From the sequence record PZ534534.1: a stretch of DNA of 64,000 nucleotides. One strand, given 5' to 3'. The notes under the pieces are model-generated. The model was not told the DNA's origin and did not search any database. It saw only the letters and a list, made by a program, of their open reading frames with translations. Both the position numbers and the translations under genes were made by a program. The stretch is from a phage. Shown here in pieces: positions 12,133-29,814 of the stretch (positions are counted from its first letter, which is position 1; the number at the start of each line of letters is the position of its first letter).

Positions 12133-13614
12133 TTACTTAGCGTACTCGATTAATTCCACAGTTTTCCCAAAGCTCGGGATATAATTTTTATTATACCCTT
12201 CGGTGAGAACCCATAAAGTATCGTACTTTTTCCACTTGTTGTCAACAGCCTTTTGTTCAAAGTTATGCTCAAAGTAGAGGTCGGTAAGGACGATGACATC
12301 TTTTGCATTCGGTATGTTAGCATCCAGATACTCGAACACGCAGGCGGCTGTTGTGCCCCATGTTGAGTGGACCTCATAGTTAATCATCTCATCGATGTTA
12401 CCGCGAGTGTATACTTTAACCTCTCCAACCTCCGTTGACCAACAGAACATAGTAACCTTAAACTCTTTATACAAATTGCACAACCCGGTGATCTCATTGA
12501 ACATTTTCTTTAAAGTTCTTTGTGAGATCGACCCAGAAACGTCTAAAGCCACTACAATATCTATAGTGTTTTCCGGATTACGACCAGGAACAATAACGTG
12601 TTGATTCTTGTTTATAGCTCCAACTTTTCGCATTGTGGTGGTCAAAGACCCAGATCGGCGACCAGGTTTTCTGTAGGTTAACTCAGCCTTTCTTTTAGAT
12701 AACATACGTTGCTTAATAATATCTATATAATTGATTACAGGCTTGCCTCTGTTTTTGACAAACTCGCGCACCGCCTCGGGGCAACGACCTCCTGAAGCTT
12801 GCATTGCTGCTTCCAACATGTCACCAGAGTCCTGCATGGCCTGATCTTTGTCAGATTGACTGATTACTGGTTGCGGCTGATCATACCCCATAGCCTTTCC
12901 AAGATCATCACTAGTGCCACCGTTCCCGCTCATGTGATCATCGGTTTGTCGTTTATCTCCTTGGGAGTTCTCACCTTTACCGTTCTTACTTTTACCGCCA
13001 TTCTGATCTCTTTGTTTATCAAGAACTGCATAGACGTTCTCAGCAATCCATCCATGAAACCTCATGTCGCAGTAGCAATTAGCTAAGAAGCCAAAAGGCT
13101 TACCTTTTACGAACTCAGTGCTTTTCCCCTTCGGGAAGAAAACACAAGGAGGCTTGCTAAAGTCAACCACAAGACCTGTGTTGATAACGTGATCACAAGC
13201 AATATTGAACAGTTCCGGCTCAAAGCTTTTACCACGGACCAGATGATCACAGATAATATGCCCCACCTCATGTGACAGAAGAAAGGCCACCTCTTTCACA
13301 GATTTTGGGGAATAGAAAACCTCAGCCATCTCAAACTGCTTGTCAGTCAGAGATGCTTTAAGAATGGTTTTACGCTCATCCGCCAACCCCATAATGAACT
13401 CAGGGCTGTAGTAGATGCGTTTATGGTCGGTTGCCATGGTGGAGCACCATGTGTGGTTTTCTACGAACTGCAACCCTGACAGTAGTGTGCCATAAAACGG
13501 CAGCTTTTCAAGGAGATACATACGTGCAGCCTGCAACATTCTCAGGGCATCATCTTTCTGCGAGGCAATGATTTCTGAACTTCTGCTATCCATTAAAACT
13601 CCAGAAGGGGCCAT
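12133..13614 (-). CDS. vWA-domain protein with N-terminal HExxH metallopeptidase-like domain
   Basis: HExxH motif LLSHEVGHIICDH in N-terminal half; vWA MIDAS motif VALDVSGSIS (DxSxS) in C-terminal half. Architecture resembles metallopeptidase-vWA partners of MoxR ATPases (established family knowledge). Confidence 0.65.
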   Translation of the reverse strand: MAPSGVLMDSRSSEIIASQKDDALRMLQAARMYLLEKLPFYGTLLSGLQFVENHTWCSTMATDHKRIYYSPEFIMGLADERKTILKASLTDKQFEMAEVFYSPKSVKEVAFLLSHEVGHIICDHLVRGKSFEPELFNIACDHVINTGLVVDFSKPPCVFFPKGKSTEFVKGKPFGFLANCYCDMRFHGWIAENVYAVLDKQRDQNGGKSKNGKGENSQGDKRQTDDHMSGNGGTSDDLGKAMGYDQPQPVISQSDKDQAMQDSGDMLEAAMQASGGRCPEAVREFVKNRGKPVINYIDIIKQRMLSKRKAELTYRKPGRRSGSLTTTMRKVGAINKNQHVIVPGRNPENTIDIVVALDVSGSISQRTLKKMFNEITGLCNLYKEFKVTMFCWSTEVGEVKVYTRGNIDEMINYEVHSTWGTTAACVFEYLDANIPNAKDVIVLTDLYFEHNFEQKAVDNKWKKYDTLWVLTEGYNKNYIPSFGKTVELIEYAK

Positions 13615-13626
13615 TGGCCCCTGTCA

Positions 13627-14670
13627 TTATTTAACGTGTTTGAAAATACCTGCCAACTCGGTCATTGTCATGCGGGTGGTCTTCATAAGATCTGTCATAG
13701 CTTTCTCCATAATTGGAGATACTACCATAAAGTTTCCTTTAGTGAAACCTTTATTCCAGTCGGTCACCAACAGGGGTTTAAGTCCAGCTCCAAGACGTTC
13801 ACCAGTTAAAGCACAGCATTTGCGAATATACGAACTCTTAAATTGGCTGAATGACAGATCAACTTTCATACCTACATCGTAGAACGTTTGACAATAGAAA
13901 GTGTAAGCTTTGGCAATCTCAACATCATCAGGTAGTGCAGGAACCTCTTCTGTAAGCTCCTCTTCGACCTCCTGAGTCTCTTTTTCCTCTTCATGCACCT
14001 GTTGCGTCATTTCTTCAATCTCTTCTGTGATAGGCTCGTTTACAATGTCGGAAATGTGCTTCTTGGGTGCACGATAAGTAACTTTAGACATCGGTAGCAT
14101 ATCTTCCTCCTCTTCTTCGTCAAAGAGTGCTAGTTTATCCTCTTCCGTTCCATATTGCAAGATGAAATCTTCAAAAGTATAATCACCTTTCAATTTCTCC
14201 ATACGCTCTTCGCTCAGGTGGAGCATCATCTGCTGGACAATTTTTCGATCAGTTTCGTCTTTAATCAAGACTGCAGTCTTTTTATCTACCAGACAGTCCT
14301 TTAGAGAGTTGCATCTCAATCCCACCACACAACAGTTATCAGCCGCATAAGGACCTTCATCATCTATCCGCTCCAGAGATGGGTAGAAAGGATTCCCCAG
14401 CCCGTTTTCATCTGTGTGCATGTCAAAAGGTATAAGGGTATAGTCGCATACTCCATCTCCTAAAAGTTTTTTACCAAATAGGAGGTATTCTTCCCATGAC
14501 AGGTCGAACTCTATATCTCGTTTCCGTGCGTTATTCTGTTTGCGTCTATATTTTTTGAGCAAGCGCTCTAACTCTTCTGGTGTATAATATTTTTCAAGAT
14601 TCATGAGTCGTCTCTCGTGCTCTGTAAGTGAAGAAATCGTATCAATTGTCTCAACAGATGTCAACATCAA
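13627..14670 (-). CDS. putative His-Me finger (HNH-like) endonuclease-domain protein with acidic C-terminal extension
   Basis: N-terminal region ...GDGVCDYTLIPF...SLERIDDEGPYAADNCCVVGLRCNSLKD resembles the DRID-type HNH pattern; Glu-rich middle; internal ATG preceded by GAGGAGG lies in a 29-bp inverted repeat shared with gene 15935..16291. Confidence 0.4.
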   Translation of the reverse strand: MMLTSVETIDTISSLTEHERRLMNLEKYYTPEELERLLKKYRRKQNNARKRDIEFDLSWEEYLLFGKKLLGDGVCDYTLIPFDMHTDENGLGNPFYPSLERIDDEGPYAADNCCVVGLRCNSLKDCLVDKKTAVLIKDETDRKIVQQMMLHLSEERMEKLKGDYTFEDFILQYGTEEDKLALFDEEEEEDMLPMSKVTYRAPKKHISDIVNEPITEEIEEMTQQVHEEEKETQEVEEELTEEVPALPDDVEIAKAYTFYCQTFYDVGMKVDLSFSQFKSSYIRKCCALTGERLGAGLKPLLVTDWNKGFTKGNFMVVSPIMEKAMTDLMKTTRMTMTELAGIFKHVK

Positions 14671-14677
14671 AAACGTG

Positions 14678-14706
14678 TTGACTTTACTCTAACTCCACAA
14701 TATAGT
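14678..14706 (+). promoter_or_regulatory. sigma70-type promoter (TTGACT-17-TATAGT)
   Basis: Read directly in divergent intergenic region upstream of 14747 gene. Confidence 0.55.
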
Positions 14707-14746
14707 GCACCCATTCGAAAGAAAACTAACATAGGAGCACTTACTT

Positions 14747-15646
14747 ATGGCAAATCTTAACAGTTTTAGTACGCGGTGGAAACAGGACATAACAACCAAT
14801 CTTTCAGCTGGGGACATCCTTTCTGCAATTTACGAGGCTTTAGATGATAAAGCTACTTCAAAAGCGGTTTGTACCAACCCATTAATTCCTATAGTGATGA
14901 AGGTTATTGAGCGTAGATTGGTATCTGGGTCTGATAAGTGGACATATTTAGATAATGAAGGACACACCTATTCCAATGGGTATGTCGATATAAAAGTAGA
15001 ATACGCGGTATCATACCGCCGGAGCGGTTCTGTAACTTTCAACTTCTCTGGAGGTTTTCGATCTCTGGCTACCTCACCTTTTGTTTCCTCAGAGGAGAAG
15101 TATGAGCTGCCATTTCTTTGGATGATGGCTAACGCGACAGGAAAAACCCCCGTTAGCATCCGAGTAAAATACAACTACAACGGATCTAGTAAGATCTATG
15201 CCGAAAGTGTCTCAGCAAGTTTTTATTTTGTGATGGGGGATGGAATCCTCAAACATATAAAGATGTGCGATATGCATGATGTTATAAATGAAGTGACTGA
15301 TAAGAATGTTCTAGTGAAAGACCTCAACAATTTTTATACACCTGGAGACTATTACGTCAGCCGTCCGCTGTGCATCTTTAATGCCGCACACCCTCTAGGT
15401 GAGTATTTGATCGCCAATAGCGATATTGCCAATAACCGCTTCGAGGTAGCAAGAGTTCAGAATGAGGTATTGACATCTTGCAAGAGCGGTGATAAGTTTA
15501 CCGAAGAAGAGATGGGTGTTTTAGAAATGATGGGATATAAGTGTAGCCTTTGGGTAGATGAGGTGTTTAATGATTGCATCTATGGACAGGATATTTACCC
15601 ATTAAAGAAGTATACTGATACAAGTTTAATTTATGCGAGGGTTTGA
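14747..15646 (+). CDS. hypothetical protein (299 aa)
   Basis: ORF with GGAG RBS; first gene of long plus-strand block. Confidence 0.6.
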   Translation: MANLNSFSTRWKQDITTNLSAGDILSAIYEALDDKATSKAVCTNPLIPIVMKVIERRLVSGSDKWTYLDNEGHTYSNGYVDIKVEYAVSYRRSGSVTFNFSGGFRSLATSPFVSSEEKYELPFLWMMANATGKTPVSIRVKYNYNGSSKIYAESVSASFYFVMGDGILKHIKMCDMHDVINEVTDKNVLVKDLNNFYTPGDYYVSRPLCIFNAAHPLGEYLIANSDIANNRFEVARVQNEVLTSCKSGDKFTEEEMGVLEMMGYKCSLWVDEVFNDCIYGQDIYPLKKYTDTSLIYARV

Positions 15647-15921
15647 CTATGATGAAGGCATGTGGTAATGTATATTACGTCGGTGAACATGTTCAGGCAG
15701 ACAGTGTGTGGAAATCTATTAAGTCCACCACTGACGATGCCTTTCTGAGTGGACTATGTTTCCCCAATCCGGGAGACATCCTCCCTCATCCTGGAGATTT
15801 TGTTGTCAACAAGATGGACGGTTATACCGTGTGCCTGATGGTTGAAAAAATCTTTTTAGACACTAGACACAATCACCGTCTTGTGTTAAAATTTCAAGAA
15901 TGTAAAATGACAATTGCCTAA
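15643..15921 (+). CDS. hypothetical protein (92 aa)
   Basis: ORF overlapping upstream stop by 4 nt. Confidence 0.5.
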   Translation: MTMMKACGNVYYVGEHVQADSVWKSIKSTTDDAFLSGLCFPNPGDILPHPGDFVVNKMDGYTVCLMVEKIFLDTRHNHRLVLKFQECKMTIA

Positions 15922-15934
15922 GGAGACCTTACCG

Positions 15935-16291
15935 ATGTCTAAAGTTACTTATCGTGCAGCTATTTACTGCAATGAACACCCAATCAATAATGATGGTCAC
16001 TGCCTTTTTAAAGAAAATCAATTGGGCTGTATTGTCCTCCCTGATGAAGGGGAAGGTTATCTGATTGCATTGACAGGGTTTGAACCTAAGGCTCTGGAAG
16101 CCAATCTGGACTACCTGGTAGAAGAGGGTGCTGCAGACCTGGTTGCCAATGGCCTCTCCATAAGCCTTGACGAAGTAGAGCGCTTCATGGGCAATTACCG
16201 TGTAGTGCGTGAGTTTACTATCGAGGTGGAAACTCCCGAGTGGGGTAGCCATGAAACTAATGCCGAAGAAAAAGAAGAGGAGGTAGAATAA
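15935..16291 (+). CDS. hypothetical acidic protein (118 aa)
   Basis: ATG with AGGAGA RBS 8 nt upstream (track start 15914 is TTG in same frame); N-terminus MSKVTYRA lies in 29-bp inverted repeat. Confidence 0.5.
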   Translation: MSKVTYRAAIYCNEHPINNDGHCLFKENQLGCIVLPDEGEGYLIALTGFEPKALEANLDYLVEEGAADLVANGLSISLDEVERFMGNYRVVREFTIEVETPEWGSHETNAEEKEEEVE

Positions 16292-16548
16292 TGAAAGTGC
16301 AGATCTTGACTAATGCCGAGAAGATGTTTATTGAAGATACACCTTTTGAAGCTGGTGAGCTACAGTTCGTTTATTTTGTTGACTTAGATAAGGTGTTTCC
16401 TGCACTGAATCTAGGTTTGGATGAAGTTCCTCATAAGGTTTTGTGCCAAGTTGTTCGTGCCTTAGCGGCAGAGGGGGAGTTCCACACCCTTCAAGATGTC
16501 CAGACCTACGGGTATCTTGAACTACAACGAGAAGAAGAGGTGGACTGA
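16291..16548 (+). CDS. hypothetical protein (85 aa)
   Basis: ORF; ATGA overlap with upstream gene. Confidence 0.5.
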   Translation: MKVQILTNAEKMFIEDTPFEAGELQFVYFVDLDKVFPALNLGLDEVPHKVLCQVVRALAAEGEFHTLQDVQTYGYLELQREEEVD

Positions 16549-16550
16549 TA

Positions 16551-16931
16551 ATGGCTCAGTGGAAGACAACAGTTGACCTTCATGATCAGTGGTTAGGACG
16601 CATCACTGAAGACGGGAAGCTAGTGGAGTGGGACAATAAGCATGTTAGCGAGTTGGCAAGTATTGTGGCTGGCAAGTTACGCTCCAAGTTCCCTGAACAA
16701 CTGGATCCTGATAGTTCAAAGTTCGATCCTGAGTTAGAGGATGTTGTATACTACTTCGACACCGTTGATGACTACGACGCGTGGTTTGCAGCACGGGAGC
16801 TTTACCCACAAGGCTCTGCTATGCGCCAGATGGAAGAAGATTATCCTCCGTGTGAGCAATTCAATAGTGCAATGACTTGCCTCTATGATTGGGCAGATAA
16901 GAACCTTGTCTGGATTCGGACTGCATTTTAG
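16551..16931 (+). CDS. hypothetical protein (126 aa)
   Basis: ORF in array. Confidence 0.5.
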   Translation: MAQWKTTVDLHDQWLGRITEDGKLVEWDNKHVSELASIVAGKLRSKFPEQLDPDSSKFDPELEDVVYYFDTVDDYDAWFAARELYPQGSAMRQMEEDYPPCEQFNSAMTCLYDWADKNLVWIRTAF

Positions 16932-16975
16932 TGGGCAGGAATGGCGGCAAGGATGCTGCTTAAGGAGTAGTAGAG

Positions 16976-17245
16976 ATGTTATACCAGCAATATGAACTTC
17001 GTGCAGAAAAAGAGTTAAATTTTGACAAAGATATTCACAGATATTATTATGGGAAAGTTAGAGGGCAAGCAAGAAAGTGTACTCCAACACTCTTTTATGC
17101 CAGCAGACGACTAGCGCCAGAAGAGGCAACAGCAGAAAGGGTTGCGTACAACTGGAGAGTCACGTATGATATTGACAGATTCGATGTGATATCTGTTTTG
17201 GAAAACTTTGAAAACACTTACACACAAGTAGAGGACTTTTACTAA
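16976..17245 (+). CDS. hypothetical protein (89 aa)
   Basis: ORF; stop overlaps start of next gene. Confidence 0.5.
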   Translation: MLYQQYELRAEKELNFDKDIHRYYYGKVRGQARKCTPTLFYASRRLAPEEATAERVAYNWRVTYDIDRFDVISVLENFENTYTQVEDFY

Positions 17246-18429
17246 TGTCAAGAAACGTATTCGAAAGTGGTCAAATCACTGTCCGTGAGTTGCCAGCTAT
17301 TATTCAGTTTGCCCAACGTCATAGCCGATCTGTCCTAATTTTGGGACCAATGGGTGTGGGTAAAAGCCAGGTGATGAAGCAGATCGCTGATAATATGTTC
17401 GGTGAGCGAGATGACAACCTTGTTGACGTGCGACTGTCAGATAAAGATCCTGCCGACTTATCTGGGCTACCTATCCCTGTAGAAGCGGATGGAACTACAC
17501 GTACAGTGTTTGCAATTCCAGAATTTTGGCCTGCGGATCCTGACTGGAGCGGAATTATCTTTCTGGATGAGCTCACTCATGCAGATAACTACCTGCAAAA
17601 GGTTGCAATGCAAATTATGCTTGACCACAAGTGCGGCACCTATGCATTCCCTAAAGGTTCTGTTTTTGTGGCTGCGGGTAACCGTTCTACAGATGGTGCG
17701 GTTCTTTCGGCGCTCGAAGCCCCTCTGGCTAACCGTTTTATCATTGTAGAGGTTACAAGCAATGCAGAGGTGTTTATTGAGGACTACGCATTCCTCAACG
17801 GGGTTCACTCCTCTGTAATTGGGTATCTGAAAAGAGTTCCATCAGCTATTGATAATTATGAGGCTATGGCTGAGATTAATTGTCCATCTTTTGCCACACC
17901 ACGATCTTGGGTTGCTGCATCTGACATCTTGCACGATTTTGACAGCGGTATTATTTCTGACGCTATGGCCCGTGTTCTTCTACAAGGTGCTATTGGTCAC
18001 ACTGCAGCGGTAGAGATCTGGACTTACCACACCAAGAAACGTAATTTACCGGAAATCGGTCGGATTATGGCAGGTGGCTGCAAAGAATACGTAGGTCCTA
18101 AGCAGCCAGACATTTTGTGGATTCTTGGATCTGAAGGTTGTATCGCTATTCGCAATATGATGGAAAATGCAAGTATCTCAGACGAAGATCTTGTCAGCTG
18201 CGTGGCAAACTTCCTCGATTTCCTTTGGGAAAACTTCAAGGACGAGAACCGAGATTTTGTATTCTCAGTCTTTATGGCGATGATGAAACCTAATGCCTTA
18301 GGAAATGCCTTGCTTATCGGTAAAGGGCGTGACAAGATTGTTGCTCAGCTGATCAAAGCATACCCAAACCTGATGAAGATTGTAAAAGAGTTTGGTGAAG
18401 AGTTTAGCGCCATTTTGGCTAAAGCTTAA
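17245..18429 (+). CDS. MoxR-like AAA+ ATPase (AAA_5 type)
   Basis: Walker A LILGPMGVGKSQ and Walker B IIFLDELTHAD, then FVAAGNRSTDG arrangement typical of MoxR/CbbQ-type ATPases. Functional partner of vWA protein is inference. Confidence 0.65.
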   Translation: MSRNVFESGQITVRELPAIIQFAQRHSRSVLILGPMGVGKSQVMKQIADNMFGERDDNLVDVRLSDKDPADLSGLPIPVEADGTTRTVFAIPEFWPADPDWSGIIFLDELTHADNYLQKVAMQIMLDHKCGTYAFPKGSVFVAAGNRSTDGAVLSALEAPLANRFIIVEVTSNAEVFIEDYAFLNGVHSSVIGYLKRVPSAIDNYEAMAEINCPSFATPRSWVAASDILHDFDSGIISDAMARVLLQGAIGHTAAVEIWTYHTKKRNLPEIGRIMAGGCKEYVGPKQPDILWILGSEGCIAIRNMMENASISDEDLVSCVANFLDFLWENFKDENRDFVFSVFMAMMKPNALGNALLIGKGRDKIVAQLIKAYPNLMKIVKEFGEEFSAILAKA

Positions 18430-18439
18430 GGGGGGTTGT

Positions 18440-18820
18440 ATGGCTAAAGTAGGTAAGCGGGGAAACTACCTGGTGGTATTGACCGAGGAGCCGGAGAAGG
18501 AGTACGAATGCAGCTCCACTTGCGTGATCGATATCCGAGAAAAAGATGTAGATGAAGTCTGGTTTAAAATATTGGACGCTTGCGATAGCAGTGATTATTT
18601 CTTCATTTATGTCAACGATAAGGCTGGATTCTTCCATGACGACGGAGAGTTGCCGTATGAAATCTATGAACTTGTAGAGGCTTGCCATCGTGGAGATGCG
18701 GAGTTGTTTGGCCTACGGCTGAAAAGCGGTAAATTCTTCTATCAAGATGAGTGCATGAATCTTCATAACTTTGTAGAGGGAACTTGCAACGATGGAGAGA
18801 TTTTGGCACACTACGATTAA
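18440..18820 (+). CDS. hypothetical protein (126 aa)
   Basis: ATG with GGGGGG RBS (track start 18392 overlaps previous gene). Confidence 0.5.
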   Translation: MAKVGKRGNYLVVLTEEPEKEYECSSTCVIDIREKDVDEVWFKILDACDSSDYFFIYVNDKAGFFHDDGELPYEIYELVEACHRGDAELFGLRLKSGKFFYQDECMNLHNFVEGTCNDGEILAHYD

Positions 18821-18828
18821 TTTCTAAG

Positions 18829-18860
18829 ACCTCCCCCGCTTCGGCGGGGATTTTCTATTT
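18829..18860 (+). terminator. rho-independent terminator (UUCG tetraloop)
   Basis: CCCCGC-TTCG-GCGGGG hairpin followed by ATTTTCTATTT. Confidence 0.7.
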
Positions 18861-18869
18861 GGAGTCATT

Positions 18870-19370
18870 GTGAAAATTAAGATCTTTGCTATTATTTTGA
18901 GCGCACTTTTATCGCTGCCTGTTGTTGCAGCACCAAAACAAAAAGTATATCATACTTGCAAGCCATCAGATACTAAGGAAAACATTCTGGCATGCAATAT
19001 CTACAGGGAAGCTAGAGGAGATGGCACGATGGGTATGCTGGCATCTGGGTTTGCCACACTAAACAGGAAATCCCACCCTAAATACCCAGACACTATAAGA
19101 AAGATTGTCTACCAACCTAACCAGTTTTCGTGGACAAACCACGGCAAAACTTTTAAGGTGACAGAAAAAGATTCATGGGATCACGCTAAAAGTCTTGCAA
19201 AGATGCTTCTAAAGGTCTATAATAACAACCATGTTGCATACATGGCTATGGACATAACAGGTGGAGCAACACACTACCATACAACCAAAGTACGACCGAA
19301 ATGGGCAAAAAAGATGCAGAGGACAGCTCAATTCGGGAGCCATATCTACTACAAGGAGCGCAATAAATGA
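18870..19370 (+). CDS. secreted SleB-type cell-wall hydrolase (Hydrolase_2 family), candidate lysis enzyme
   Basis: GTG start after GGAG RBS; N-terminal signal peptide MKIKIFAIILSALLSLPVVAAP; EARGDG...LNRK...YPDTI...VYQPNQFSW matches conserved core of SleB-type hydrolases. Confidence 0.65.
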   Translation: MKIKIFAIILSALLSLPVVAAPKQKVYHTCKPSDTKENILACNIYREARGDGTMGMLASGFATLNRKSHPKYPDTIRKIVYQPNQFSWTNHGKTFKVTEKDSWDHAKSLAKMLLKVYNNNHVAYMAMDITGGATHYHTTKVRPKWAKKMQRTAQFGSHIYYKERNK

Positions 19371-21349
19371 TTGTAAACAGTAATGAAACTAAAGCGGTAC
19401 TAACCGGGAATATGGAGGTCACCAGGGGCTCAATTTCTCTGAACAAAGAGACTTTTGGGCTAATCATTAAAGGGATTTACGAAGATAAGGTGCTGGCAAG
19501 CTGCCGTGAACCAATCTTCAATGCCGTGGACTCCCATGTTGAGTCTGGACGGGGTGATGTACCGATCATTATTCACTCTCCTACAGACCTTGAACCATAC
19601 TTCTTTGTGCAGGACGTTGGATTGGGCATGTCAGAAGAGATGGTCCGCAACACTTTCATGAATCTCGGGGAGTCAACCAAGCGCAACAGCAACGCTCTGG
19701 TAGGTAATAAAGGTGTTGGTTCAAAGGCTCCGTTCAGTATGGTGGACACTTTCGATGTTATCAGTGTGCACAATGGTGTTGAAAGCACATATCTATTGTT
19801 CTTGGATCAGGGTATCCCAAACGTTACCAAGATCCGTGAGCGGAAGACTGAAGAGCACAACGGGGTAAAAGTTCAGTTCCATGTTAAGAAAGAGCATGTC
19901 CTGAAATATCGCACTGCTATTGCGTCATGCCTACGCTATGCAAAGTTTCCGTTTACCGTTACCGACCCTATGACCAGTAAGATGCTGGAAGGTGATAAGG
20001 TTGAGGCGCAGTATCACTACGAGAAGGATGGTTGGAAAATGACCATCCTGAAAGGTTATACCAGCTCTGATGAGAGCCGTGTGGTGATGGGACACCAACC
20101 TTACCGCTCTAAGTTTCTGGAAACATTGACAGACTACCCTGCAATCTGTGTAGAGATCCCTATCGGGGATTGCAATATTAACCCTGGGCGCGAATGGACC
20201 ATAGAGGGGCACGACGATGGTGGATTCCAAGAGCGTCTGGAGGCTTTTGTCAAAGAGGGTATCCGTCTTCGTGGGGCAGAAGTTGTTGCGGAATTGGAGA
20301 CAGCAAAAACATCCTCAGAAGCACGTGAGATGATGAAGAACAGTGGAGTGTTCGGGCACATCTTCGGTAAGAATTTTATGTGGGACAGATGGGAAGAAAC
20401 AGGGCTTGGCGACTTAGGCGATTGTGAAATTTTCGCTGGAGGCTTAAATAAAGGCCGCATAGGCTATGCTCGTTACGGAAAGTCGGAGTTCTTACGAGGT
20501 GTATACCTTGTATTTAACGACGGAGATGGCAAATATAACCGAAATAAGTGTAACTATTTAAGCGAAATCACCGGACGCAACGTTTTCTATTGCCGGAATA
20601 CGGATCTAGTGAAAGAGTTTAAAGAGGCGGCACACCATCCGTTCTTTGCAGATACTGTCAAATTGTTATCAGAGCTCCCTCGCCGACCTGCGAAGAAAGG
20701 TGAAACAAAAACTCATTACGAGCCAGGTTATTGGGTTAAAAAGCTTGAGAAGGATGGTTACTTCCGTCGTGAACGTATTACTAAGGCAGAGTTCAAGAAG
20801 ATTAAGCACTGCATTCCTTATGAAGGTGATATCCAACGTGGAAGTTGTTGGCTGGGACAGCTGAGTAACATCTACCAGCAAAATTATGACCGTGTGCGTG
20901 CGGCACTCCAGATTCCTGAAGGGGAAGACCTGTACCTGGTATCAGAATCCCGTCTGCTTTGGACTGATCCTGATTGCCAGTATGTTACAGAGAAAAATGT
21001 GGAACATTTGTTGAAAGAGGATGCTTGGAAATTCTTACTGACTCGCGCAGCAAATGAAACTTCATATGACAGCCTGTATAGACAATTAGGGAAAATTATT
21101 CCCATGCAAGATTTTGGAAATTATCGGCCACATTTCCACAAGTGGGAAGGTAACACCGCGTGGAAGCACAGTGAGCTAAATCATCGTGCCAAAATCTTAA
21201 TCGCCAACCGAGTTAAATGCGGGAAGGCCTATATTGCAAGATTGGAAAAGAAATACCCACTTTTGAAGCATGTAGGCTTGAAATATTGGGACACTCCTGC
21301 TATGATTGAATACCGTGAACTGATCGATACAAAGAATAACATCAAATAA
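19367..21349 (+). CDS. rIIA: rIIA-like protein with GHKL (Bergerat-fold) ATPase domain
   Basis: N-terminal VQDVGLGMSEEMVRNTFMNLGESTK...GNKGVGSKAPFSM fits GHKL G1/G2 boxes; size (660 aa) and position next to a second large gene fit phage rIIA/rIIB pairs. rIIA identity is inference. Confidence 0.45.
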   Translation: MIVNSNETKAVLTGNMEVTRGSISLNKETFGLIIKGIYEDKVLASCREPIFNAVDSHVESGRGDVPIIIHSPTDLEPYFFVQDVGLGMSEEMVRNTFMNLGESTKRNSNALVGNKGVGSKAPFSMVDTFDVISVHNGVESTYLLFLDQGIPNVTKIRERKTEEHNGVKVQFHVKKEHVLKYRTAIASCLRYAKFPFTVTDPMTSKMLEGDKVEAQYHYEKDGWKMTILKGYTSSDESRVVMGHQPYRSKFLETLTDYPAICVEIPIGDCNINPGREWTIEGHDDGGFQERLEAFVKEGIRLRGAEVVAELETAKTSSEAREMMKNSGVFGHIFGKNFMWDRWEETGLGDLGDCEIFAGGLNKGRIGYARYGKSEFLRGVYLVFNDGDGKYNRNKCNYLSEITGRNVFYCRNTDLVKEFKEAAHHPFFADTVKLLSELPRRPAKKGETKTHYEPGYWVKKLEKDGYFRRERITKAEFKKIKHCIPYEGDIQRGSCWLGQLSNIYQQNYDRVRAALQIPEGEDLYLVSESRLLWTDPDCQYVTEKNVEHLLKEDAWKFLLTRAANETSYDSLYRQLGKIIPMQDFGNYRPHFHKWEGNTAWKHSELNHRAKILIANRVKCGKAYIARLEKKYPLLKHVGLKYWDTPAMIEYRELIDTKNNIK

Positions 21350-21359
21350 GGAGACCAAG

Positions 21360-22565
21360 ATGATTTTCATCTACGAACATTTCAAAACCCGTAAAGAAGC
21401 ACGAGACCGCCGTGCAGAACTTGAGAAGAAGGGTTTCACATGTGCCATTGAGAAAGGCGACACAACCTGGACACTGGCAGTTGGTGCCCCAGAGTTGTTC
21501 GATCCTGACCGTGACAGCGTCTGCTACACCCGTGAGGATTTTGAAACCCGCGAAGAGGCCCGTTTATTTCGATACGGTCTGGAAGATAACGGTAAGTACG
21601 CCATGATCTTAGATTTAGGCGAAGGGTCCGTTAAACGTTGGGGCGTGGTATACCCACTGTGTGTTGTTCATGGTGTGGGGTTCACTGGGGTAGCAATCAA
21701 GTCAGAAGAACCTTTAGTAGAAGTCAAAGATCCGGTGCTGGAGGTGGTGAGCAGCGTATCTCAGCAACAGACTCGAAGTATTGAGCCTTTGGTAGTTATT
21801 TGTGGGGAACTCCTCCAGATCACCTGCAACGAAGGCATTTTTGAAATTCGCCGCAGCGAAAGTGAGGAAGTTTACCAGAAAGTCTTCGACCATATCTCTG
21901 TTCAGGAATATGATGAGGCAATTGGTGAAATCCTTGTCTGGCTGGAACGCAAGAATGAGTTCACCACACTTGCAGACAACCTGGTCATGAAAGATGGTAA
22001 GCTCTACTACTACGGTGTAGAGATGCGATCCACCATTGCAAAGAAAATTGAGAAAGATTATGCAGACGGAACACTGGATGACCGCTATGTGAAATTCCTC
22101 GTTCGCCTGCTGCGCAATCCTTCTGCAAAATCTGTAAACATGCTCTACGATTTTATGCAGGCCAACGATATCCAGATTGCAGAAGATGGTCGAATCATTT
22201 GCTACAAAGGGGTTCAGTTTAACGGCAGCAAGTGGGTGGATTGGCACAGTGGTAAAGTTCCACAATACCAGGGGGCTTTTGTATCCATGCCTCGTAACTT
22301 TGTAGAGGATGATCCGGAAGCTGCGTGCTCTTATGGCTTACACTGCGCCAGCAAAGAGTATGCAAAGAGCTACGGCACTGTAATGACTGTTATGGTTGAC
22401 CCTGCAGATGTGGTTAGTGTGCCATACCAACACAATAGCGCTAAGTGCCGTGCATGCCGCTATGAGATTGTGGTAGCTCCGGAAGCACGCAAAGATGGAG
22501 ACCCTATTGAATATGTAGTTGATCGTGACGGTAACACTATCGACATTCTTTACGAGGAGGCGTAA
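21360..22565 (+). CDS. hypothetical protein (401 aa), possibly rIIB-like by position
   Basis: Large ORF directly downstream of rIIA-like gene; no diagnostic motif recognised. Confidence 0.5.
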   Translation: MIFIYEHFKTRKEARDRRAELEKKGFTCAIEKGDTTWTLAVGAPELFDPDRDSVCYTREDFETREEARLFRYGLEDNGKYAMILDLGEGSVKRWGVVYPLCVVHGVGFTGVAIKSEEPLVEVKDPVLEVVSSVSQQQTRSIEPLVVICGELLQITCNEGIFEIRRSESEEVYQKVFDHISVQEYDEAIGEILVWLERKNEFTTLADNLVMKDGKLYYYGVEMRSTIAKKIEKDYADGTLDDRYVKFLVRLLRNPSAKSVNMLYDFMQANDIQIAEDGRIICYKGVQFNGSKWVDWHSGKVPQYQGAFVSMPRNFVEDDPEAACSYGLHCASKEYAKSYGTVMTVMVDPADVVSVPYQHNSAKCRACRYEIVVAPEARKDGDPIEYVVDRDGNTIDILYEEA

Positions 22566-23935
22566 TGGAAAAAGGGCAGTATGATGTAGGCACAGATGCT
22601 GCCCTCGTTGCAATCATGAGTGGTGAGAATGTCTTCGTTTCAGGACCTGCAGGTTGTGGGAAGACGTATCTCATCAACATGATCCAGTCAATGTATGGAG
22701 ACTCTTGCATAACGGTTGCCCCGACAGGGGTAGCCGCTTTAAACGTTAATGGAGCAACAGCACACCGAACCTTCGATCTTGCAGCAGGTGTGAGCATGGA
22801 GTCAGACTGGACCGCAATAAGGGCAAAAACAGCAAAGCCTTTGAAAAGCAAGGCATTTACCATCCTGATTATCGATGAAATCTCTATGATCCGTGCTGAT
22901 AAGTTTATAGAGATGGATAGGAAACTCCGCTTCCTTCGAAAAAATGACAAACCTTTCGGAGGCATACAGGTCATATTGTTTGGCGATTTTTACCAGGCAC
23001 CTCCTGTTGTCTCTTCTATGGAGAAGGAAGCCTACTTCAACTTCTACCATACGGACCTGTGTTGCTATACCGAATCTTGGAAAGAGCTTGACCTCCACAA
23101 CATAGCCTTAGTAGATCAGTTCCGACAGGAGTCTATTCGATTTGCCACAATGCTCAACTGTGTTCGTGAGGGTCGTCGCATAAAAGAGGTTGTAGCAGAA
23201 CTTAATGCTCGCTGTTACAAAGGCGGTGTACCAACAGACGCTCTCACAATTTGCGCCACCAACAAACAAGCAGAGGAAGTGAACAGAAGGTTCTATGATG
23301 CCATCAACGCCCCAGAGAAGGTATACACTGGTGAAATGAAGGGTAAGTTTCCCTCCACCCTGCCAGTTGAGCAGGAGATGAAGTTGAAAATTGGCATGAA
23401 AGTTATGATAACCGCCAACGATGTTGACCCGACGCACAAGGTACCTTATTATGTTAACGGAACACGTGCCACAATTGTTAAATTTAAGAACAAGGCGGTG
23501 GTGGTAGAGCTTGAAGATGGAACACAGGTTGACATAGAGCAGAGGTTGTGGGAGAATAACGAGTATAAGCCCTCTCAGAGATACAACATTGCAGAAAGGA
23601 AGATGGAGAAGTTTATAGAGAGGGTAGTGATTGGGTCATACAAGCAACTTCCTCTGAAATCTGGGTACGCCGTAACATCTCATAAAAGTCAAGGACTTAC
23701 GCTAGATTGTTACAACCTGGACCTTGGAAAGAACGGAGCTTTCTCTCCTGGGATGACGTATGTTGCTTTGAGTCGGGTTAAGACAATACAAGGAATAAAC
23801 TTGTTGCGTCCACTAAGAGAAGTTGACATTATTGTTGACCCGCGAGTCGTAGAGTTTTACAATACAACATTCCCTGACTTAGACAAAATTGTCAGGAAAG
23901 ATTTTGAAACCAGAGCAGAAGAGGGGGACGTATGA
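22565..23935 (+). CDS. dda: Dda/RecD/PIF1-like SF1B DNA helicase
   Basis: Walker A VSGPAGCGKTYL, motif II ILIIDEISMI, and C-terminal VTSHKSQGLTLD...YVALSRV motifs characteristic of RecD/Dda family. Confidence 0.7.
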   Translation: MEKGQYDVGTDAALVAIMSGENVFVSGPAGCGKTYLINMIQSMYGDSCITVAPTGVAALNVNGATAHRTFDLAAGVSMESDWTAIRAKTAKPLKSKAFTILIIDEISMIRADKFIEMDRKLRFLRKNDKPFGGIQVILFGDFYQAPPVVSSMEKEAYFNFYHTDLCCYTESWKELDLHNIALVDQFRQESIRFATMLNCVREGRRIKEVVAELNARCYKGGVPTDALTICATNKQAEEVNRRFYDAINAPEKVYTGEMKGKFPSTLPVEQEMKLKIGMKVMITANDVDPTHKVPYYVNGTRATIVKFKNKAVVVELEDGTQVDIEQRLWENNEYKPSQRYNIAERKMEKFIERVVIGSYKQLPLKSGYAVTSHKSQGLTLDCYNLDLGKNGAFSPGMTYVALSRVKTIQGINLLRPLREVDIIVDPRVVEFYNTTFPDLDKIVRKDFETRAEEGDV

Positions 23936-24273
23936 GTTTGTGGAGAAATATCGTTAACTACGTGTGTGGCAATCCGACTCCTGAAGAGAAGAATGTTGTG
24001 ATTCACGATTTTACTAAAAGATCTCGTGAAAAAGATCTACTGCTAACAAAGGTGACTGATAAAGATCCTGCAGTAGGAGACTGGGCAGGTTTTGCGTTTA
24101 CATCGGACAAATACACCTTTAACAAAGGTGACTACCTTGTTGTAGATTTTAACGAAGACATTGAGGGTGCTGGACCTTACTATCAAACCCTTATTGTTGC
24201 AGGGTGTGTTAATCTCTCTGCAGGCATGCACAGTTTGATTCTTTTTGAGCTTGACTCTGAAGACCTTGAGTAG
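23932..24273 (+). CDS. hypothetical protein (113 aa)
   Basis: ORF overlapping upstream stop. Confidence 0.5.
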   Translation: MSLWRNIVNYVCGNPTPEEKNVVIHDFTKRSREKDLLLTKVTDKDPAVGDWAGFAFTSDKYTFNKGDYLVVDFNEDIEGAGPYYQTLIVAGCVNLSAGMHSLILFELDSEDLE

Positions 24274-24334
24274 TAAGGTGTGAGTATAAAGGGGAGGCAC
24301 TCCTCCCCACAAAAACTAAGGAGAGCACCAAACG

Positions 24335-25660
24335 ATGAGTAAAACCAAATTAGAACTTACCTGGATAGGTAAAAACGAGCGCAAAAAGTTAGAGCCGCAC
24401 ATTTTGTTAGAAGATTCTAGCAAATCTTACCACAGCCAGAAGGTGACCGAAAACGATATTTTTGATAATAAACTGATTTTTGGAGATAACTTATTAGCAT
24501 TGAAGGCGCTAGAGCAAGAGTATGCATGCAAAGTGAAGTGTGTTTACATAGACCCACCATTCAATACCGGGAGGGCTTTTGAGCACTACGATGATAGCCT
24601 GGAGCATTCCATTTGGCTGGGCTTAATGAGGGATAGGTTAGAAATAATTCGTAATCTTCTGAGTGATGATGGGGTAATATTCGTTCACTTAGATGGTTGC
24701 GAAATGGCGTATTTAAAAGTTTTGATGGACGAGATTTTTGGTCGTGCAAATCAGTTAAATACCATCTCGATGACCACAAATTCCCCTTCAGGATTTAAGG
24801 CAACAGGAGCCACAGTTTTCTCCACAGCAAACTTTTTGCTTGTATATGCAAAAGATCGCAACCAGAAACCGCTTAACAAAATCTATATACCTAAAGGGTA
24901 TGATACAGGATATAACAAATACCTATTAAACCCGGATGACCATTATAAAAATTGGACGTGGTGTGGTATTGCCGATGCGTTTGCAAAGGCCAATGGCTAT
25001 AAAGATGCAAAAGAAGCCAAGAAAAAACTGCCTGACACATTCGATGATGAATTAGCACAATTCGCAATTGATAATGCAGAACGTGTATTTCAATCTGTTG
25101 CAATTGGTGGTGGTGCTAAAATAAAGAGAAAAGAAACTATCGAGAAGTCAAAGAAAGACAGGGATAAGGTTTATGTACATCCAAATGAGGATGTTGAAGG
25201 ATTTTATATCGCAAATGGTAGGCAAATGGTCTTTTACTCCAACAGGCTTTTGGAAATTGACGGTGAGATGCAGCCTGCGGAACTAATAACTGATGTTTGG
25301 ACAGATATTAGTTGGAATGGAATAGCAAATGAAGGTGGCGTTAGTTTCAAAAATGGTAAAAAACCAGAAGCGCTTTTGAAGCGGATTTTCGAGATGTGTA
25401 CGCGAGAAGGCGATTTGGTATTGGATTCATTCGGTGGTTCGGGAACTACTGCTGCTGTAGCTCACAAAATGAAAAGACGTTGGATCTTGATCGAACTGGG
25501 TGATCATTGTCATACCCATATTATTCCGCGCTTGGAAAAAGTGATCGATGGCGAAGATCAAGGTGGTATTTCTAAGTCTGTAAACTGGCAAGGTGGTGGT
25601 GGCTTCCGTTATTACAAACTTACCCCGGCCTTAATTGCGAAAGATATGTCTGATCAATAA
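24335..25660 (+). CDS. DNA methyltransferase, N6-adenine/N4-cytosine class (beta-type motif order)
   Basis: Catalytic motif IV VYIDPPFNTG precedes AdoMet motif I VLDSFGGSGTT (beta-class order). Target base and site unknown. Confidence 0.7.
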   Translation: MSKTKLELTWIGKNERKKLEPHILLEDSSKSYHSQKVTENDIFDNKLIFGDNLLALKALEQEYACKVKCVYIDPPFNTGRAFEHYDDSLEHSIWLGLMRDRLEIIRNLLSDDGVIFVHLDGCEMAYLKVLMDEIFGRANQLNTISMTTNSPSGFKATGATVFSTANFLLVYAKDRNQKPLNKIYIPKGYDTGYNKYLLNPDDHYKNWTWCGIADAFAKANGYKDAKEAKKKLPDTFDDELAQFAIDNAERVFQSVAIGGGAKIKRKETIEKSKKDRDKVYVHPNEDVEGFYIANGRQMVFYSNRLLEIDGEMQPAELITDVWTDISWNGIANEGGVSFKNGKKPEALLKRIFEMCTREGDLVLDSFGGSGTTAAVAHKMKRRWILIELGDHCHTHIIPRLEKVIDGEDQGGISKSVNWQGGGGFRYYKLTPALIAKDMSDQ

Positions 25661-25673
25661 AGAGTACAATCAA

Positions 25674-25979
25674 ATGATGAAACGTTATAAACCATACACT
25701 TTTGAAATCGATTTCGAACTTGACGATATGTTTACTGTAGAAGCTCAGGCAGTTGTCCAGTTGCCAGACCCGGAGTGCCGTGATTCTGATGTTGACTATT
25801 ACGGATTTAGACAAATTACCGATGTGCATGTTTACCACAACGGTGAAGAGGTGGACTTCCACCAACTGCCAAACGATTTGCGACACTCAATTTACAAACG
25901 TGCAGCCCGTGAACTAGAGTCCTATCTGGATGCAGCGACGACAGCAGCTGCATTTGCTGAAGAAGTGGGAGGTTTCTGA
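25674..25979 (+). CDS. hypothetical protein (101 aa)
   Basis: ATG chosen downstream of MTase stop; track start 25635 is TTG in same frame. Confidence 0.45.
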   Translation: MMKRYKPYTFEIDFELDDMFTVEAQAVVQLPDPECRDSDVDYYGFRQITDVHVYHNGEEVDFHQLPNDLRHSIYKRAARELESYLDAATTAAAFAEEVGGF

Positions 25980-26377
25980 TGATTACAGGTGTGAAGATTA
26001 TCCAATACCACTTAACTAAATTGGAAGATGCTGAAAAAGAGCTTGCAGAAGTTCTGAATAGTGGATATACTTTGCTATCATGCGCCTGCTCAGATACCTA
26101 CGCTGTGTGGACACTTATCCGGAAGGAAGAGCCTGCGGGGATCTTGGTGCCAAACCCTAAGATCATTAGTGAGGTGGATGACTATGCTCAGGACGGCCTG
26201 CCAGAAGGCTGGGAAGTATGGGAAGGTGGTGAAAACCCTGCACCAGGTAAGTGGGTAAAATACAAACTACGTAGCGGTGCACAGTACGCTGACTACTCTG
26301 ATGACCTGGATTGGAGTCATTCTTCACCAGGATCATCTGCAAGTTCATATGATATCATAGCTTTTCAGGAAGAATAA
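25979..26377 (+). CDS. hypothetical protein (132 aa)
   Basis: ORF in array. Confidence 0.5.
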   Translation: MITGVKIIQYHLTKLEDAEKELAEVLNSGYTLLSCACSDTYAVWTLIRKEEPAGILVPNPKIISEVDDYAQDGLPEGWEVWEGGENPAPGKWVKYKLRSGAQYADYSDDLDWSHSSPGSSASSYDIIAFQEE

Positions 26378-26389
26378 GGAGATAGTGTT

Positions 26390-26872
26390 ATGTCAGATTT
26401 TATGTGGAAAGTAGGTTACGCAGCTCCTGAAATGTGTGAGGCTTGCTTTGTGAAAATAGGCCGCGAGGATATCGACAAAGTGATCCTTAAGTTTCGTGAT
26501 GTGGCTGTGATCGGCAACCGAGTGCTTAAGCACTTAAAGAATCTGAAGCTCACTAAAAAGAAGTTCTTCGGACTTTTCGAAGAGAAAGTTGATGCTTGGA
26601 CCCATTGCATCCAGGAAGCTAAATCTCACTACAGTGCTATCGTTACTCCAGAACGGGTAGCCAAGATGGAAGGATTCATCAACAGCACAGAATTTGAGTG
26701 TCTGAAAGCTGCACTCGATAGTTATCCGAAATGCCTCAAGCACTTGGACAAGTATGTAGAAAAGGATGGGGAAATGTATCTCACCCTGGACGCATACTAT
26801 GAGATGCAAGAAATTTTAAATTTAGATTTGACATTGGTATCCACCGAGTATACAATAGGTATCCGGGTTTAA
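26390..26872 (+). CDS. hypothetical protein (160 aa)
   Basis: ORF with GGAG RBS. Confidence 0.55.
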   Translation: MSDFMWKVGYAAPEMCEACFVKIGREDIDKVILKFRDVAVIGNRVLKHLKNLKLTKKKFFGLFEEKVDAWTHCIQEAKSHYSAIVTPERVAKMEGFINSTEFECLKAALDSYPKCLKHLDKYVEKDGEMYLTLDAYYEMQEILNLDLTLVSTEYTIGIRV

Positions 26873-26877
26873 CACTA

Positions 26878-26906
26878 GGCCCTGCCCGAAAGGGTGGGGC
26901 TTTTTG
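26878..26906 (+). terminator. rho-independent terminator (GNRA loop)
   Basis: GCCCTGCCC-GAAA-GGGTGGGGC hairpin followed by TTTTTG; near-identical copy at 39174. Confidence 0.6.
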
Positions 26907-26923
26907 CATTAGGAGACAGCAAA

Positions 26924-27688
26924 TTGAAATTCATCTACAAAGAACACTACCACAAAGGTGTTGTGTGGAGTCTATTTGACGGGTCTGGTGGTGCAGTTAT
27001 TGACTGGGCAAAAGCTGGGTACCTGTGCCTGTGCTTTAATGCAGAAGGTGCTGACCACGGCAGTTATGCAGAGGTGATAACCGATCATCCTAACATTCAC
27101 TATGTGGATTATTGGATTGACCCATGGTTCCCTCAAGAAACTTTTTGCATGTATCCAGCTCCAGACTTTATTCTTGCATTTCCTCCGTGCACGCATTTAG
27201 CGGTATCAGGAGCTGCACACTTTAAGAAAAAGCTGGCTAAGGACCCACTGATCCAAATTAATGCTGTAAAGGATGCTCGGGTTGCGGAAGAGTTGGGAGA
27301 GATTTACGATTGCCCGTGGCATGTAGAGAATCCTGTAGGTGTTATGTCCACACTGTGGCGCAAACCTGATTACCGTTTTCACCCTTCGGATTATGGCGGG
27401 TATTTACCGGAAGATGATGTAAATCCATGGTTTCCTGAATTTATAGCTCCACGTGATGCCTATCCAAAAATAACTTGCGGCTGGATAGGTAATGGATTTA
27501 TAATCCCAGCCACAAAACCTGTCCCGCAAATAGTTGACGTGGTTAGCGGGTATTCCATGCAACACGCCAAGCTGGGTGGAAAGAGTGCAAGAACGAAGAT
27601 GATTCGAAGCCTCACACCACGTGGCTGGGCAAAAGCCGTATTCTTAGCAAACGAGCCTGTAGTAAGGAGCAGAATTAATGGGAAGTAA
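26924..27688 (+). CDS. DNA cytosine-5 methyltransferase
   Basis: Motif I SLFDGSGG (FxGxGG), motif IV FPPCTHLAVSG (PC dipeptide), motif VI HVENPVG (ENV) read in order. Start set to TTG 26924 after AGGAGA RBS because track start 26894 (GTG) lies in terminator hairpin. Confidence 0.6.
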   Translation: MKFIYKEHYHKGVVWSLFDGSGGAVIDWAKAGYLCLCFNAEGADHGSYAEVITDHPNIHYVDYWIDPWFPQETFCMYPAPDFILAFPPCTHLAVSGAAHFKKKLAKDPLIQINAVKDARVAEELGEIYDCPWHVENPVGVMSTLWRKPDYRFHPSDYGGYLPEDDVNPWFPEFIAPRDAYPKITCGWIGNGFIIPATKPVPQIVDVVSGYSMQHAKLGGKSARTKMIRSLTPRGWAKAVFLANEPVVRSRINGK

Positions 27689-29756: not shown

Positions 29757-29814
29757 TGTTTAACAAAGAGTGGGAGGGGTAGTACAACCGCCTCCCCTTT
29801 AAGGAGAACACTTT

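Follow-up and report, generated by a model that had tools for sequence, protein, structure and literature searches.

In a 64,000-nucleotide stretch of phage DNA (sequence record PZ534534.1; hereafter the window), the gene for an AAA+ ATPase and the gene for a protein that joins a metallopeptidase-like domain to a von Willebrand factor A (vWA) domain are divergently transcribed, on the plus and minus strands respectively, and lie 3.6 kb apart. An earlier note, made from the sequence alone, had described this layout correctly and had taken the two for a functional pair despite the separation. The locus raises the questions of whether genes so placed still work together, how the placement came about, and what the pair might do for a phage. 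The comparative evidence presented here strongly supports the ATPase and the vWA-metallopeptidase (hereafter vWA-peptidase) as an obligate pair, one functional unit even where its genes are split, and identifies the divergent layout as derived and confined to the rV5/Vequintavirinae group. We consider it rather probable that the two genes encode halves of one machine, that their ancestral operon was inverted, and that the machine serves an early or middle, non-structural role. The feature itself is an ordinary, already annotated member of a known module, unusual only in the split of its genes onto opposite strands, and will not surprise a specialist (its counterparts are rV5 gp4/gp12, N4 gp24/gp25, the MoxR/peptidase-vWA pair of jumbo phages and, in bacteria, the AAA_5 + DUF2201 operon); added here are the quantification of the obligate pairing, the tracing of the split to what appears to be one inversion, and the judgement that a morphogenesis hypothesis fits the gene context poorly. 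The two genes are as follows.

12133..13593, minus strand: vWA-metallopeptidase gene (probable extent), 486 residues counted from M8 of the longest frame; equivalent to rV5 gene 12 and N4 gp25
17245..18429, plus strand: gene of a diverged MoxR-class AAA+ ATPase, 394 residues; equivalent to rV5 gene 4 and N4 gp24

Obligate Pairing in Phages and Bacteria

The broad alignment (A2) held no stretch conserved enough for a locus search, and the sub-alignments A3, A4 and A5 were used. When viral loci were collected by way of the vWA-peptidase, the ATPase gene was found within 10 kb in 30 of 31 and on the same contig in all 31. The single exception (L016/L129, IMGVR_UViG_3300045988_163358) carries the ATPase at about 4-5 kb and the vWA-peptidase at about 103-105 kb of one ~136 kb contig. 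The two genes share a strand, and circular permutation would still leave no less than 35 kb between them; loss of one partner is thereby ruled out at this locus in favor of long-distance separation, the most extreme among the pairs seen. Collected the other way, by way of the ATPase, 71 of 80 viral loci were evaluable (the other nine break off about 1.1 kb or less downstream of the ATPase) and all 71 contain the vWA-peptidase, in 69 of them as the next gene downstream, in the same orientation and at a median distance of 74 nucleotides. The same order prevails in bacteria, where the ATPase lies directly upstream of the vWA-peptidase in 72 of the 73 loci that could be evaluated out of 80, often with overlapping stop and start codons; on the Sulfurivermis fontis chromosome, for example, an AAA_5 gene directly precedes a DUF2201 gene, as an AAA_5-type ATPase gene likewise does on environmental phage contigs. 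This co-occurrence strongly supports the functional pairing proposed before.

The pair is also widely distributed. Searches of phage records with tblastn found the vWA-peptidase in 530 and the ATPase in 786, including N4-like podoviruses, where the matches are annotated "N4 gp24-like" (ATPase) and "N4 gp25-like" (vWA-peptidase), Rak2-like jumbo phages of ~350 kb, PA5oct-like phages and Bacillus phage G, and the vWA-peptidase family as a whole comprises 26,192 cluster representatives at E<=1e-10. Common in bacteria too, and carried by N4-like, rV5-like, Rak2-like and PA5oct-like jumbo phages as well as by many environmental phages, the pair ranks among the more widespread uncharacterised two-gene modules of large virulent phages. 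A conserved third gene was sought in the 80 bacterial neighborhoods, and none was consistently linked. Experiments can be planned on the footing that the pair is a single functional unit, split or not, and both the rV5-like phage EdH4 and N4 itself are already amenable to CRISPRi-ART knock-down.

Natural fusions of the two genes were sought among unusually long family members, and the only fusion-like case is one of the bacterial loci: in a metagenome-assembled genome of the Nitrosomonadales (locus L208, 4948-7248, plus strand) both profiles match a single uninterrupted frame of 766 codons, either a natural gene fusion or an assembly error that deleted a stop codon. The unusual length of P0145 goes with unannotated extensions, and P0275, a metagenomic DUF2201 protein of 794 residues, carries an intein (Hint + LAGLIDADG) within its metallopeptidase domain. 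Inteins tend to occupy highly conserved sites of important proteins.

A Zincin-vWA Protein with Intact Catalytic and Metal-Binding Residues

Both genes correspond to real open reading frames (ORFs). The longest ORF of the vWA-peptidase, 12133-13614 on the minus strand, would encode 493 residues, and the first codon of this frame had initially been taken as the start; the frame holds, but the start does not. M8 is the conserved start, its ATG at 13593 is preceded by a GGAG ribosome-binding site at 13599-13602, and the upstream ATG at 13614 is not conserved and sits within a GC hairpin (13606-13622), so the true coding sequence is probably 12133-13593, the 486-residue form used in deposited records, that of phage Murica included.

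The earlier reading of this protein as an HExxH peptidase-like N terminus combined with a vWA MIDAS motif (metal-ion-dependent site of adhesion) is upheld by profile searches. Pfam places DUF2201_N ('putative metallopeptidase', a zincin; E=2.3e-28, 100 bits against a cut-off of 23.2) at the N terminus and DUF2201 ('VWA-like'; E=3.6e-11, 43.7 bits against 26.4) at the C terminus, both above the gathering cut-off. DUF2201_N is present in 65 of 65 homologues and DUF2201 in all of these except P0180. Residue conservation was read from an alignment of 24 sequences with identity down to 21%, and the following features were located.

13258..13272, minus strand: HEVGH, predicted zinc-binding and catalytic motif (H115, E116, H119)
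13192-13194, minus strand: codon of invariant D141
12895..13002, minus strand: low-complexity linker rich in Gly, Ser, Lys and Asp, approximately residues 205-240, joining the peptidase and vWA halves
12529-12543, minus strand: DVSGS of the MIDAS, coordinates verified

H115, E116, H119, H124, R127 and D141 are invariant throughout the alignment, the catalytic Glu E116 thus being intact together with its His ligands, and the same holds for the complete MIDAS (D358, S360, G361, S362, T421 and D445), which lies on a vWA fold. Because the HExxH and MIDAS residues persist down to such low identity, these short motifs are not chance matches. The sequence profile further aligns the HEVGH helix with that of the minigluzincin MJ1213 and of the M48 peptidases BepA and HtpX. 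In the predicted structure two folded halves flank linker residues 208-235, whose predicted local distance difference test (pLDDT) score is below 50, and linker length differs among the aligned proteins. A single-sequence search of the PDB returned no solved structure for the vWA-peptidase, and the defence-system models of PADLOC-DB gave no match to it. Together, these data make membership in the DUF2201 zincin-vWA family (PF13203 + PF09967) well supported and mark the protein as a putative peptidase.

A Diverged MoxR-Class ATPase

The ATPase has a lid in addition to its alpha/beta core, and its C-terminal extension is entirely helical; it presumably assembles into a hexameric ring. Its residue invariance was likewise judged in an alignment of 24 sequences.

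17344..17367, plus strand: Walker A, GPMGVGKS, with G37, G39, K40 and S41 invariant
17449..17541, plus strand: helix-2 insert region, residues 69-99, with a predicted beta-hairpin at 75-90
17554..17574, plus strand: Walker B, IIFLDEL, with D108 and E109 invariant
17671..17739, plus strand: sensor 1 AAGNR and PLANRF motif, with N146, R147 and R164 invariant
17893..17910, plus strand: sensor 2 region ATPRSW, with P219 and R220 invariant

The Walker A and B motifs noticed at the outset are thus present, and R164 of the PLANRF motif is a candidate arginine finger. Walker motifs alone, on which the MoxR assignment had been based, are generic, however, and the window protein falls below every Pfam AAA cut-off (AAA_5 scores 16.7 bits against 22), so that the call required transitive homology and fold evidence. 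Full-length homologues found at E~1e-44 with 31-38% identity carry AAA_3 (PF07726), AAA_5 and sometimes bpMoxR. AAA_3 is the MoxR signature. At E<=1e-3, AAA_5/AAA_3 is matched by all 11 distant homologues but by none of 13 rV5-group members, and the rV5-group ATPase is therefore a diverged member of the family. Single-sequence searches of the PDB gave only Walker-A-level matches for the ATPase and none for its partner, and profiles were therefore required; the best PDB match of the ATPase profile is to the AAA modules of Midasin (E=1.6e-10). A Foldseek comparison of the AlphaFold model (pLDDT 84) with the PDB returned NorQ or CbbQ structures as all of its top 17 matches, with E values of 7e-9 to 5e-7 and target-normalized template modelling (TM) scores of 0.58-0.64. 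Helix 2 of the model is followed by strands at residues 75-81 and 84-90, and near residues 128-134 there is a short hairpin, the predicted pre-sensor-1 hairpin. A helix-2-insert hairpin and a pre-sensor-1 hairpin mark the clade of MoxR, dynein and Midasin. Sequence and predicted fold therefore support a diverged MoxR-class ATPase (AAA_3/AAA_5; CbbQ/NorQ-like), and no assignment to an unrelated AAA clade emerged. Against PADLOC-DB the ATPase gave P-loop-level matches only (E>=0.003).

The same fold relatives bear on a different role, in which the pair would act as a metal-cofactor insertion chaperone on the model of NorQD (iron into nitric oxide reductase), of the CobST or BchID chelatases or of CoxDE, with a phage or host enzyme, for instance one of nucleotide metabolism, as its client and the HExxH as a metal-binding or target-specificity module rather than a protease. 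NorQ and CbbQ are indeed the closest fold relatives, NorD shares the layout of N-terminal domain, linker and VWA domain, and the pair recurs beside nucleotide-metabolism genes; yet the invariant E116 is expected of a hydrolase and unneeded for simple metal binding, the Pfam and profile matches point to peptidase families, and no metalloenzyme partner is consistently linked across lineages. Given the invariant catalytic Glu in particular, we regard metal insertion as quite improbable.

Origin of the Divergent Layout

Elsewhere the usual layout is an adjacent, co-directional operon with the ATPase followed by the vWA-peptidase. Divergent transcription is found in every locus whose vWA-peptidase is 39-99% identical to that of the window, namely the rV5 group and its ~145 kb Klebsiella, Salmonella, Cronobacter and Erwinia relatives, and every more distant locus has the two genes on one strand. 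The divergent state is therefore derived; that it is a lineage-specific derivative, and that the pair itself is already annotated and described, both go beyond the earlier note. Relatives of the window form a graded series.

L007: pair adjacent, with a gap of 37 nucleotides
L006: same strand, with four small ORFs inserted between the pair
L008: divergent, with 4.4 kb between the genes
Window: divergent, with 3.6 kb between the genes

By synteny mapping, the window and L006/L007 share one gene order (vWA-peptidase, ATPase, SleB-like hydrolase, PIF1-like helicase), and the polarity of the ATPase is the sole difference in that comparison. One local inversion, of the segment with the ATPase in the rV5-group ancestor, would explain this arrangement. 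Starting from an adjacent ATPase-then-vWA operon such as many phages and bacteria retain, the event would have turned the ATPase segment around and shifted the divergent promoter region across to the ATPase's other side, leaving two retained genes on either side of a bidirectional promoter, and the small ORFs and an Srd-like gene would have been gained in addition.

Might the separated genes have ceased to cooperate, with each serving its own function or one of them decaying? They do occupy different transcription units, and in one relative (L016) tens of kilobases lie between them. Set against this, both genes are kept in every split-clade genome examined, all catalytic and MIDAS residues are intact, the two proteins diverge in amino-acid sequence closely in step across relatives, and the ratios of nonsynonymous to synonymous substitution rates (dN/dS) between the window and L010, the one comparison in which dS is not saturated, are 0.021 and 0.038 for the two genes, which indicates strong purifying selection. 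Such a decoupling after the split is scarcely credible, and if the genes do encode one machine, that machine tolerates complete uncoupling of its two genes, by up to tens of kilobases.

A Proposed ATP-Driven Machine

In the NorQD system the VWA domain has a protruding finger that reaches into the pore of the hexameric ATPase and touches its helix-2 inserts; acidic residues of the target are the proposed ligands of the MIDAS, and the linker that joins the VWA to the N-terminal domain is twisted and stretched as ATP is hydrolysed (PMC13036017, PMC9976466). The helix-2 insert contacts the vWA partner in both NorQ and CbbQ (PMC13036017), and in the phage ATPase the corresponding region holds an invariant cluster (D71, G74, A90, P92, P96, D98 and P99), an indirect hint of partner contact at this site. 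By analogy with NorQ-NorD and CbbQ-CbbO, the MoxR-class ATPase would form one half of the machine and the vWA-peptidase would be its dedicated adaptor-effector: the vWA domain would dock on the ATPase ring, touching the helix-2-insert region; the MIDAS metal would capture an acidic residue of the target protein; and ATP hydrolysis would twist and stretch the linker, so that the target is remodelled and the peptidase is placed or activated for the cut. The identities and the coupling of the parts are established by the analyses above, and it is from the analogy that we infer the docking mode, proteolysis and a target. The best-supported reading would be a MIDAS-targeted protease driven by ATP, whose ATPase would serve to remodel the target, to gate the peptidase, or both.

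Gene Context and Biological Role

For jumbo phages, Iyer et al. 2021 proposed a role in virion assembly and structural-protein processing, on the analogy of Acidianus two-tailed virus, whose tails need a MoxR-vWA system to develop (PMC7824862). On this view the pair would assemble heads or tails as a chaperone while the zincin trims structural proteins. The gene context of the lineages examined is a poor fit. In rV5 the two genes lie in two transcription units around the bidirectional promoter and outside the late unit (genes 27-66), and neither is flagged with mass-spectrometry evidence in virions (PMC3606486). In the window the ATPase heads an arm that continues into rIIA, rIIB, a helicase, methyltransferases, a primase and a DNA polymerase. 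In N4-like phages the RNAPII genes lie on one side of the pair and those for dCTP deaminase, rII, helicase and DNA polymerase on the other (gp24 - gp25 - dCTP deaminase ... rIIA - rIIB - helicase - DNA polymerase), and in environmental phages the pair is flanked by a 5'-3' exonuclease gene and a thymidylate synthase gene, with the tail genes on the opposite strand. Nowhere in these lineages does it fall within a morphogenesis module, and the same operon is common in bacterial chromosomes devoid of phage context. This context favors an early or middle non-structural role, in host take-over or in replication-phase protein processing, over virion maturation, which of the roles listed initially (virion maturation, host protein remodelling or defence evasion) is the least favored.

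Several points weigh against a non-structural role. The published proposal was made for just such a domain architecture (PMC7824862), the chaperoning of assembly and maturation is an established function of MoxR-vWA pairs, and absence from virions is compatible with a transient chaperone; since chaperones are likewise missing from virions, the evidence favors a non-structural role without proving it. We nevertheless hold virion assembly to be unlikely.

The order 'MoxR/vWA pair - rIIA - rIIB - helicase - ... - DNA polymerase' at window positions 17245-31000 is common to rV5-like myoviruses and N4-like podoviruses, a shared arm that hints at an old early/middle module conserved across morphotypes. 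Returning to the early or middle non-structural role, we would tentatively go further, to a proposal that we regard as possible though somewhat short of probable: the pair would be an ATP-gated, MIDAS-targeted protease rather than a morphogenesis chaperone, acting in early to mid-infection within an ancient take-over and replication arm and tolerating the uncoupling of its genes. If so, its target would be a host protein or a non-structural phage protein, and the arm itself (pair - rIIA/rIIB - helicase - DNA polymerase) would be common to N4-like podoviruses and rV5-like myoviruses.

Transcription Units and Neighboring Genes

The intergenic region and the flanks of the two genes contain the following elements, the sigma-70-like promoters being consensus matches only.

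14664 to 14636, minus strand: sigma-70-like promoter, TTGACA-17-TACGAT, extended -10
14678-14706, plus strand: sigma-70-like promoter, TTGACT-17-TATAGT
14636..14706, no strand assigned: back-to-back putative promoters for the two divergent units
17022-17050, plus strand: best sigma-70-like match of the region, TTGACA-17-TATTAT, 11/12
18834..18849, plus strand: intrinsic terminator, CCCCGCTTCGGCGGGG followed by a T-run, closing the ATPase unit
13606..13622, no strand assigned: GC-rich hairpin AGGGGCC-AAT-GGCCCCT, a perfect 7-bp stem between the Srd-like stop and the vWA-peptidase start
13627-14604, minus strand: Srd-like 'anti-sigma factor' gene, directly upstream of the vWA-peptidase gene
14747-15646, plus strand: first gene of the rightward unit, a 'putative alpha 1-3 fucosyltransferase' in many records

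The two -35 boxes form the arms of an 8-bp inverted repeat at 14660-14682 (GTCAACAT...GTGTTGAC), which would make the predicted promoter symmetric and bidirectional and perhaps provide an operator. Promoter-like sites are not significantly more numerous in the region than the shuffled expectation. Leftward, the Srd-like gene comes first and is followed by the vWA-peptidase; rightward, the unit runs from 14747 through six small genes, the ATPase and one further gene to the strong terminator at 18834-18849, and phage Murica has a terminator annotated at the equivalent place. The hairpin at 13606-13622 is also annotated as a terminator in Murica, and it could attenuate read-through or modulate translation of the vWA-peptidase gene. 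Shortly upstream of the ATPase start, the 17022-17050 match falls within a small ORF (16976-17245) and may be an internal promoter that gives the ATPase a transcript of its own.

The Srd-like gene, whose annotated start (ATG at 14604) makes it shorter than the longest ORF (TTG at 14670), has among its PHROG matches decoy-of-sigma70 and Srd as well as, over its N-terminal ~130 residues, endonuclease / endonuclease VII families. The gene at 14747-15646 has no Pfam or NCBIfam match, and its only PHROG match is to phrog_12338 (unknown function). Scans of the window proteins with NCBIfam and PADLOC gave nothing useful.

Existing Annotation

The region is 98.5% identical to Escherichia phage JeffSchatz across 6.5 kb, and 122 phage records match it at 90-99% identity, nearly all of them rV5-like coliphages of the genus Vequintavirus. 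In near-identical deposited genomes the vWA-peptidase gene is labelled "metallopeptidase (contains von Willebrand factor domain)" and its partner "ATPase / MoxR ATPase". In the rV5 genome paper of 2013, gene 4 already appears as "MoxR - ATPase", and gene 12 is entered as a conserved hypothetical protein bearing PF13203 DUF2201_N (PMC3606486). In the rV5 record DQ832317 the vWA-peptidase is split into a 441-residue gene 12 and an overlapping 81-residue gene 13 (PMC3606486 Table S3), unlike the window and most relatives, which have a single intact 486-residue ORF; the split is probably a frameshift or sequencing error of the old record.

In phrog_1314 and many RefSeq/Pharokka-style records (e.g. 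NC_024134 and NC_041871) the vWA-peptidase is labelled 'HNH endonuclease', and occasionally it appears as a 'DNA repair ATPase'. The Pfam scan found no HNH nuclease domain and matched only DUF2201_N and DUF2201, for which reason the HNH label appears to be a propagated misannotation. Sixteen 'Campylobacter phage' records, 15 of which give Campylobacter jejuni as host, also match this rV5-like E. coli sequence (MG065635, MG065654, MG065655 and MG065666 at 96.5-98% identity to the window region over 6.5 kb), and their host assignment looks doubtful, pointing to contaminating coliphage or mislabelling. A literature search found no experiments on any member of the module and no demonstrated activity or substrate; the CRISPRi-ART paper, which uses EdH4, reports nothing on either gene, and the phAPEC6 virion paper mentions neither.

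Comparison with Known Systems

The closest characterized systems are NorQ-NorD and CbbQ-CbbO, the best fold matches of the phage ATPase, with sequence identities of about 16-23%. Like NorD, the phage partner in its model starts with an N-terminal functional domain, continues through a disordered linker and ends in a VWA domain that bears a MIDAS, whereas the phage ATPase differs from NorQ and CbbQ by an extra helical C-terminal region of roughly 100 residues. NorQD/CbbQO offer the template of finger-in-pore docking and linker twisting, the phage pair being likened to them in mechanism without being counted among them. Also among the closest known systems is Midasin/Rea1, a eukaryotic AAA_5 ring with a C-terminal MIDAS domain that differs as a single giant polypeptide with six AAA modules, no peptidase and a role in ribosome biogenesis.

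Among homologous pairs, N4 gp24 (AAA ATPase) and gp25 (vWFA, pfam13203) of the Schitoviridae have the same domain architecture, their function being listed as unknown, and both the N4-like and the rV5-like modules stand on an arm with rIIA, rIIB, helicase and DNA polymerase. The N4-like genes share a strand and lie side by side or almost so, in contrast to the divergent window genes, and the proteins of the two groups are only about 22-30% identical; relative to the N4-like proteins, the rV5-group vWA-peptidase has insertions before the HExxH and between an RR motif and the first vWA strand, and the ATPase has a longer C-terminal tail. In group 2.2 jumbo phages, Iyer et al. 2021 described a MoxR AAA+ ATPase with a vWA co-chaperone fused to an N-terminal metallopeptidase (PMC7824862), an architecture identical to that of the window pair; in the ~350 kb Rak2-like phages the homologues are adjacent, whereas in the window they are split and inverted. 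The bacterial AAA_5 + DUF2201 operon (e.g. in Sulfurivermis fontis; >515 species hits) combines the same families in the ancestral ATPase-then-vWA order, and differs in being chromosomal and in encoding shorter proteins (about 350 + 415 residues), likewise uncharacterised.

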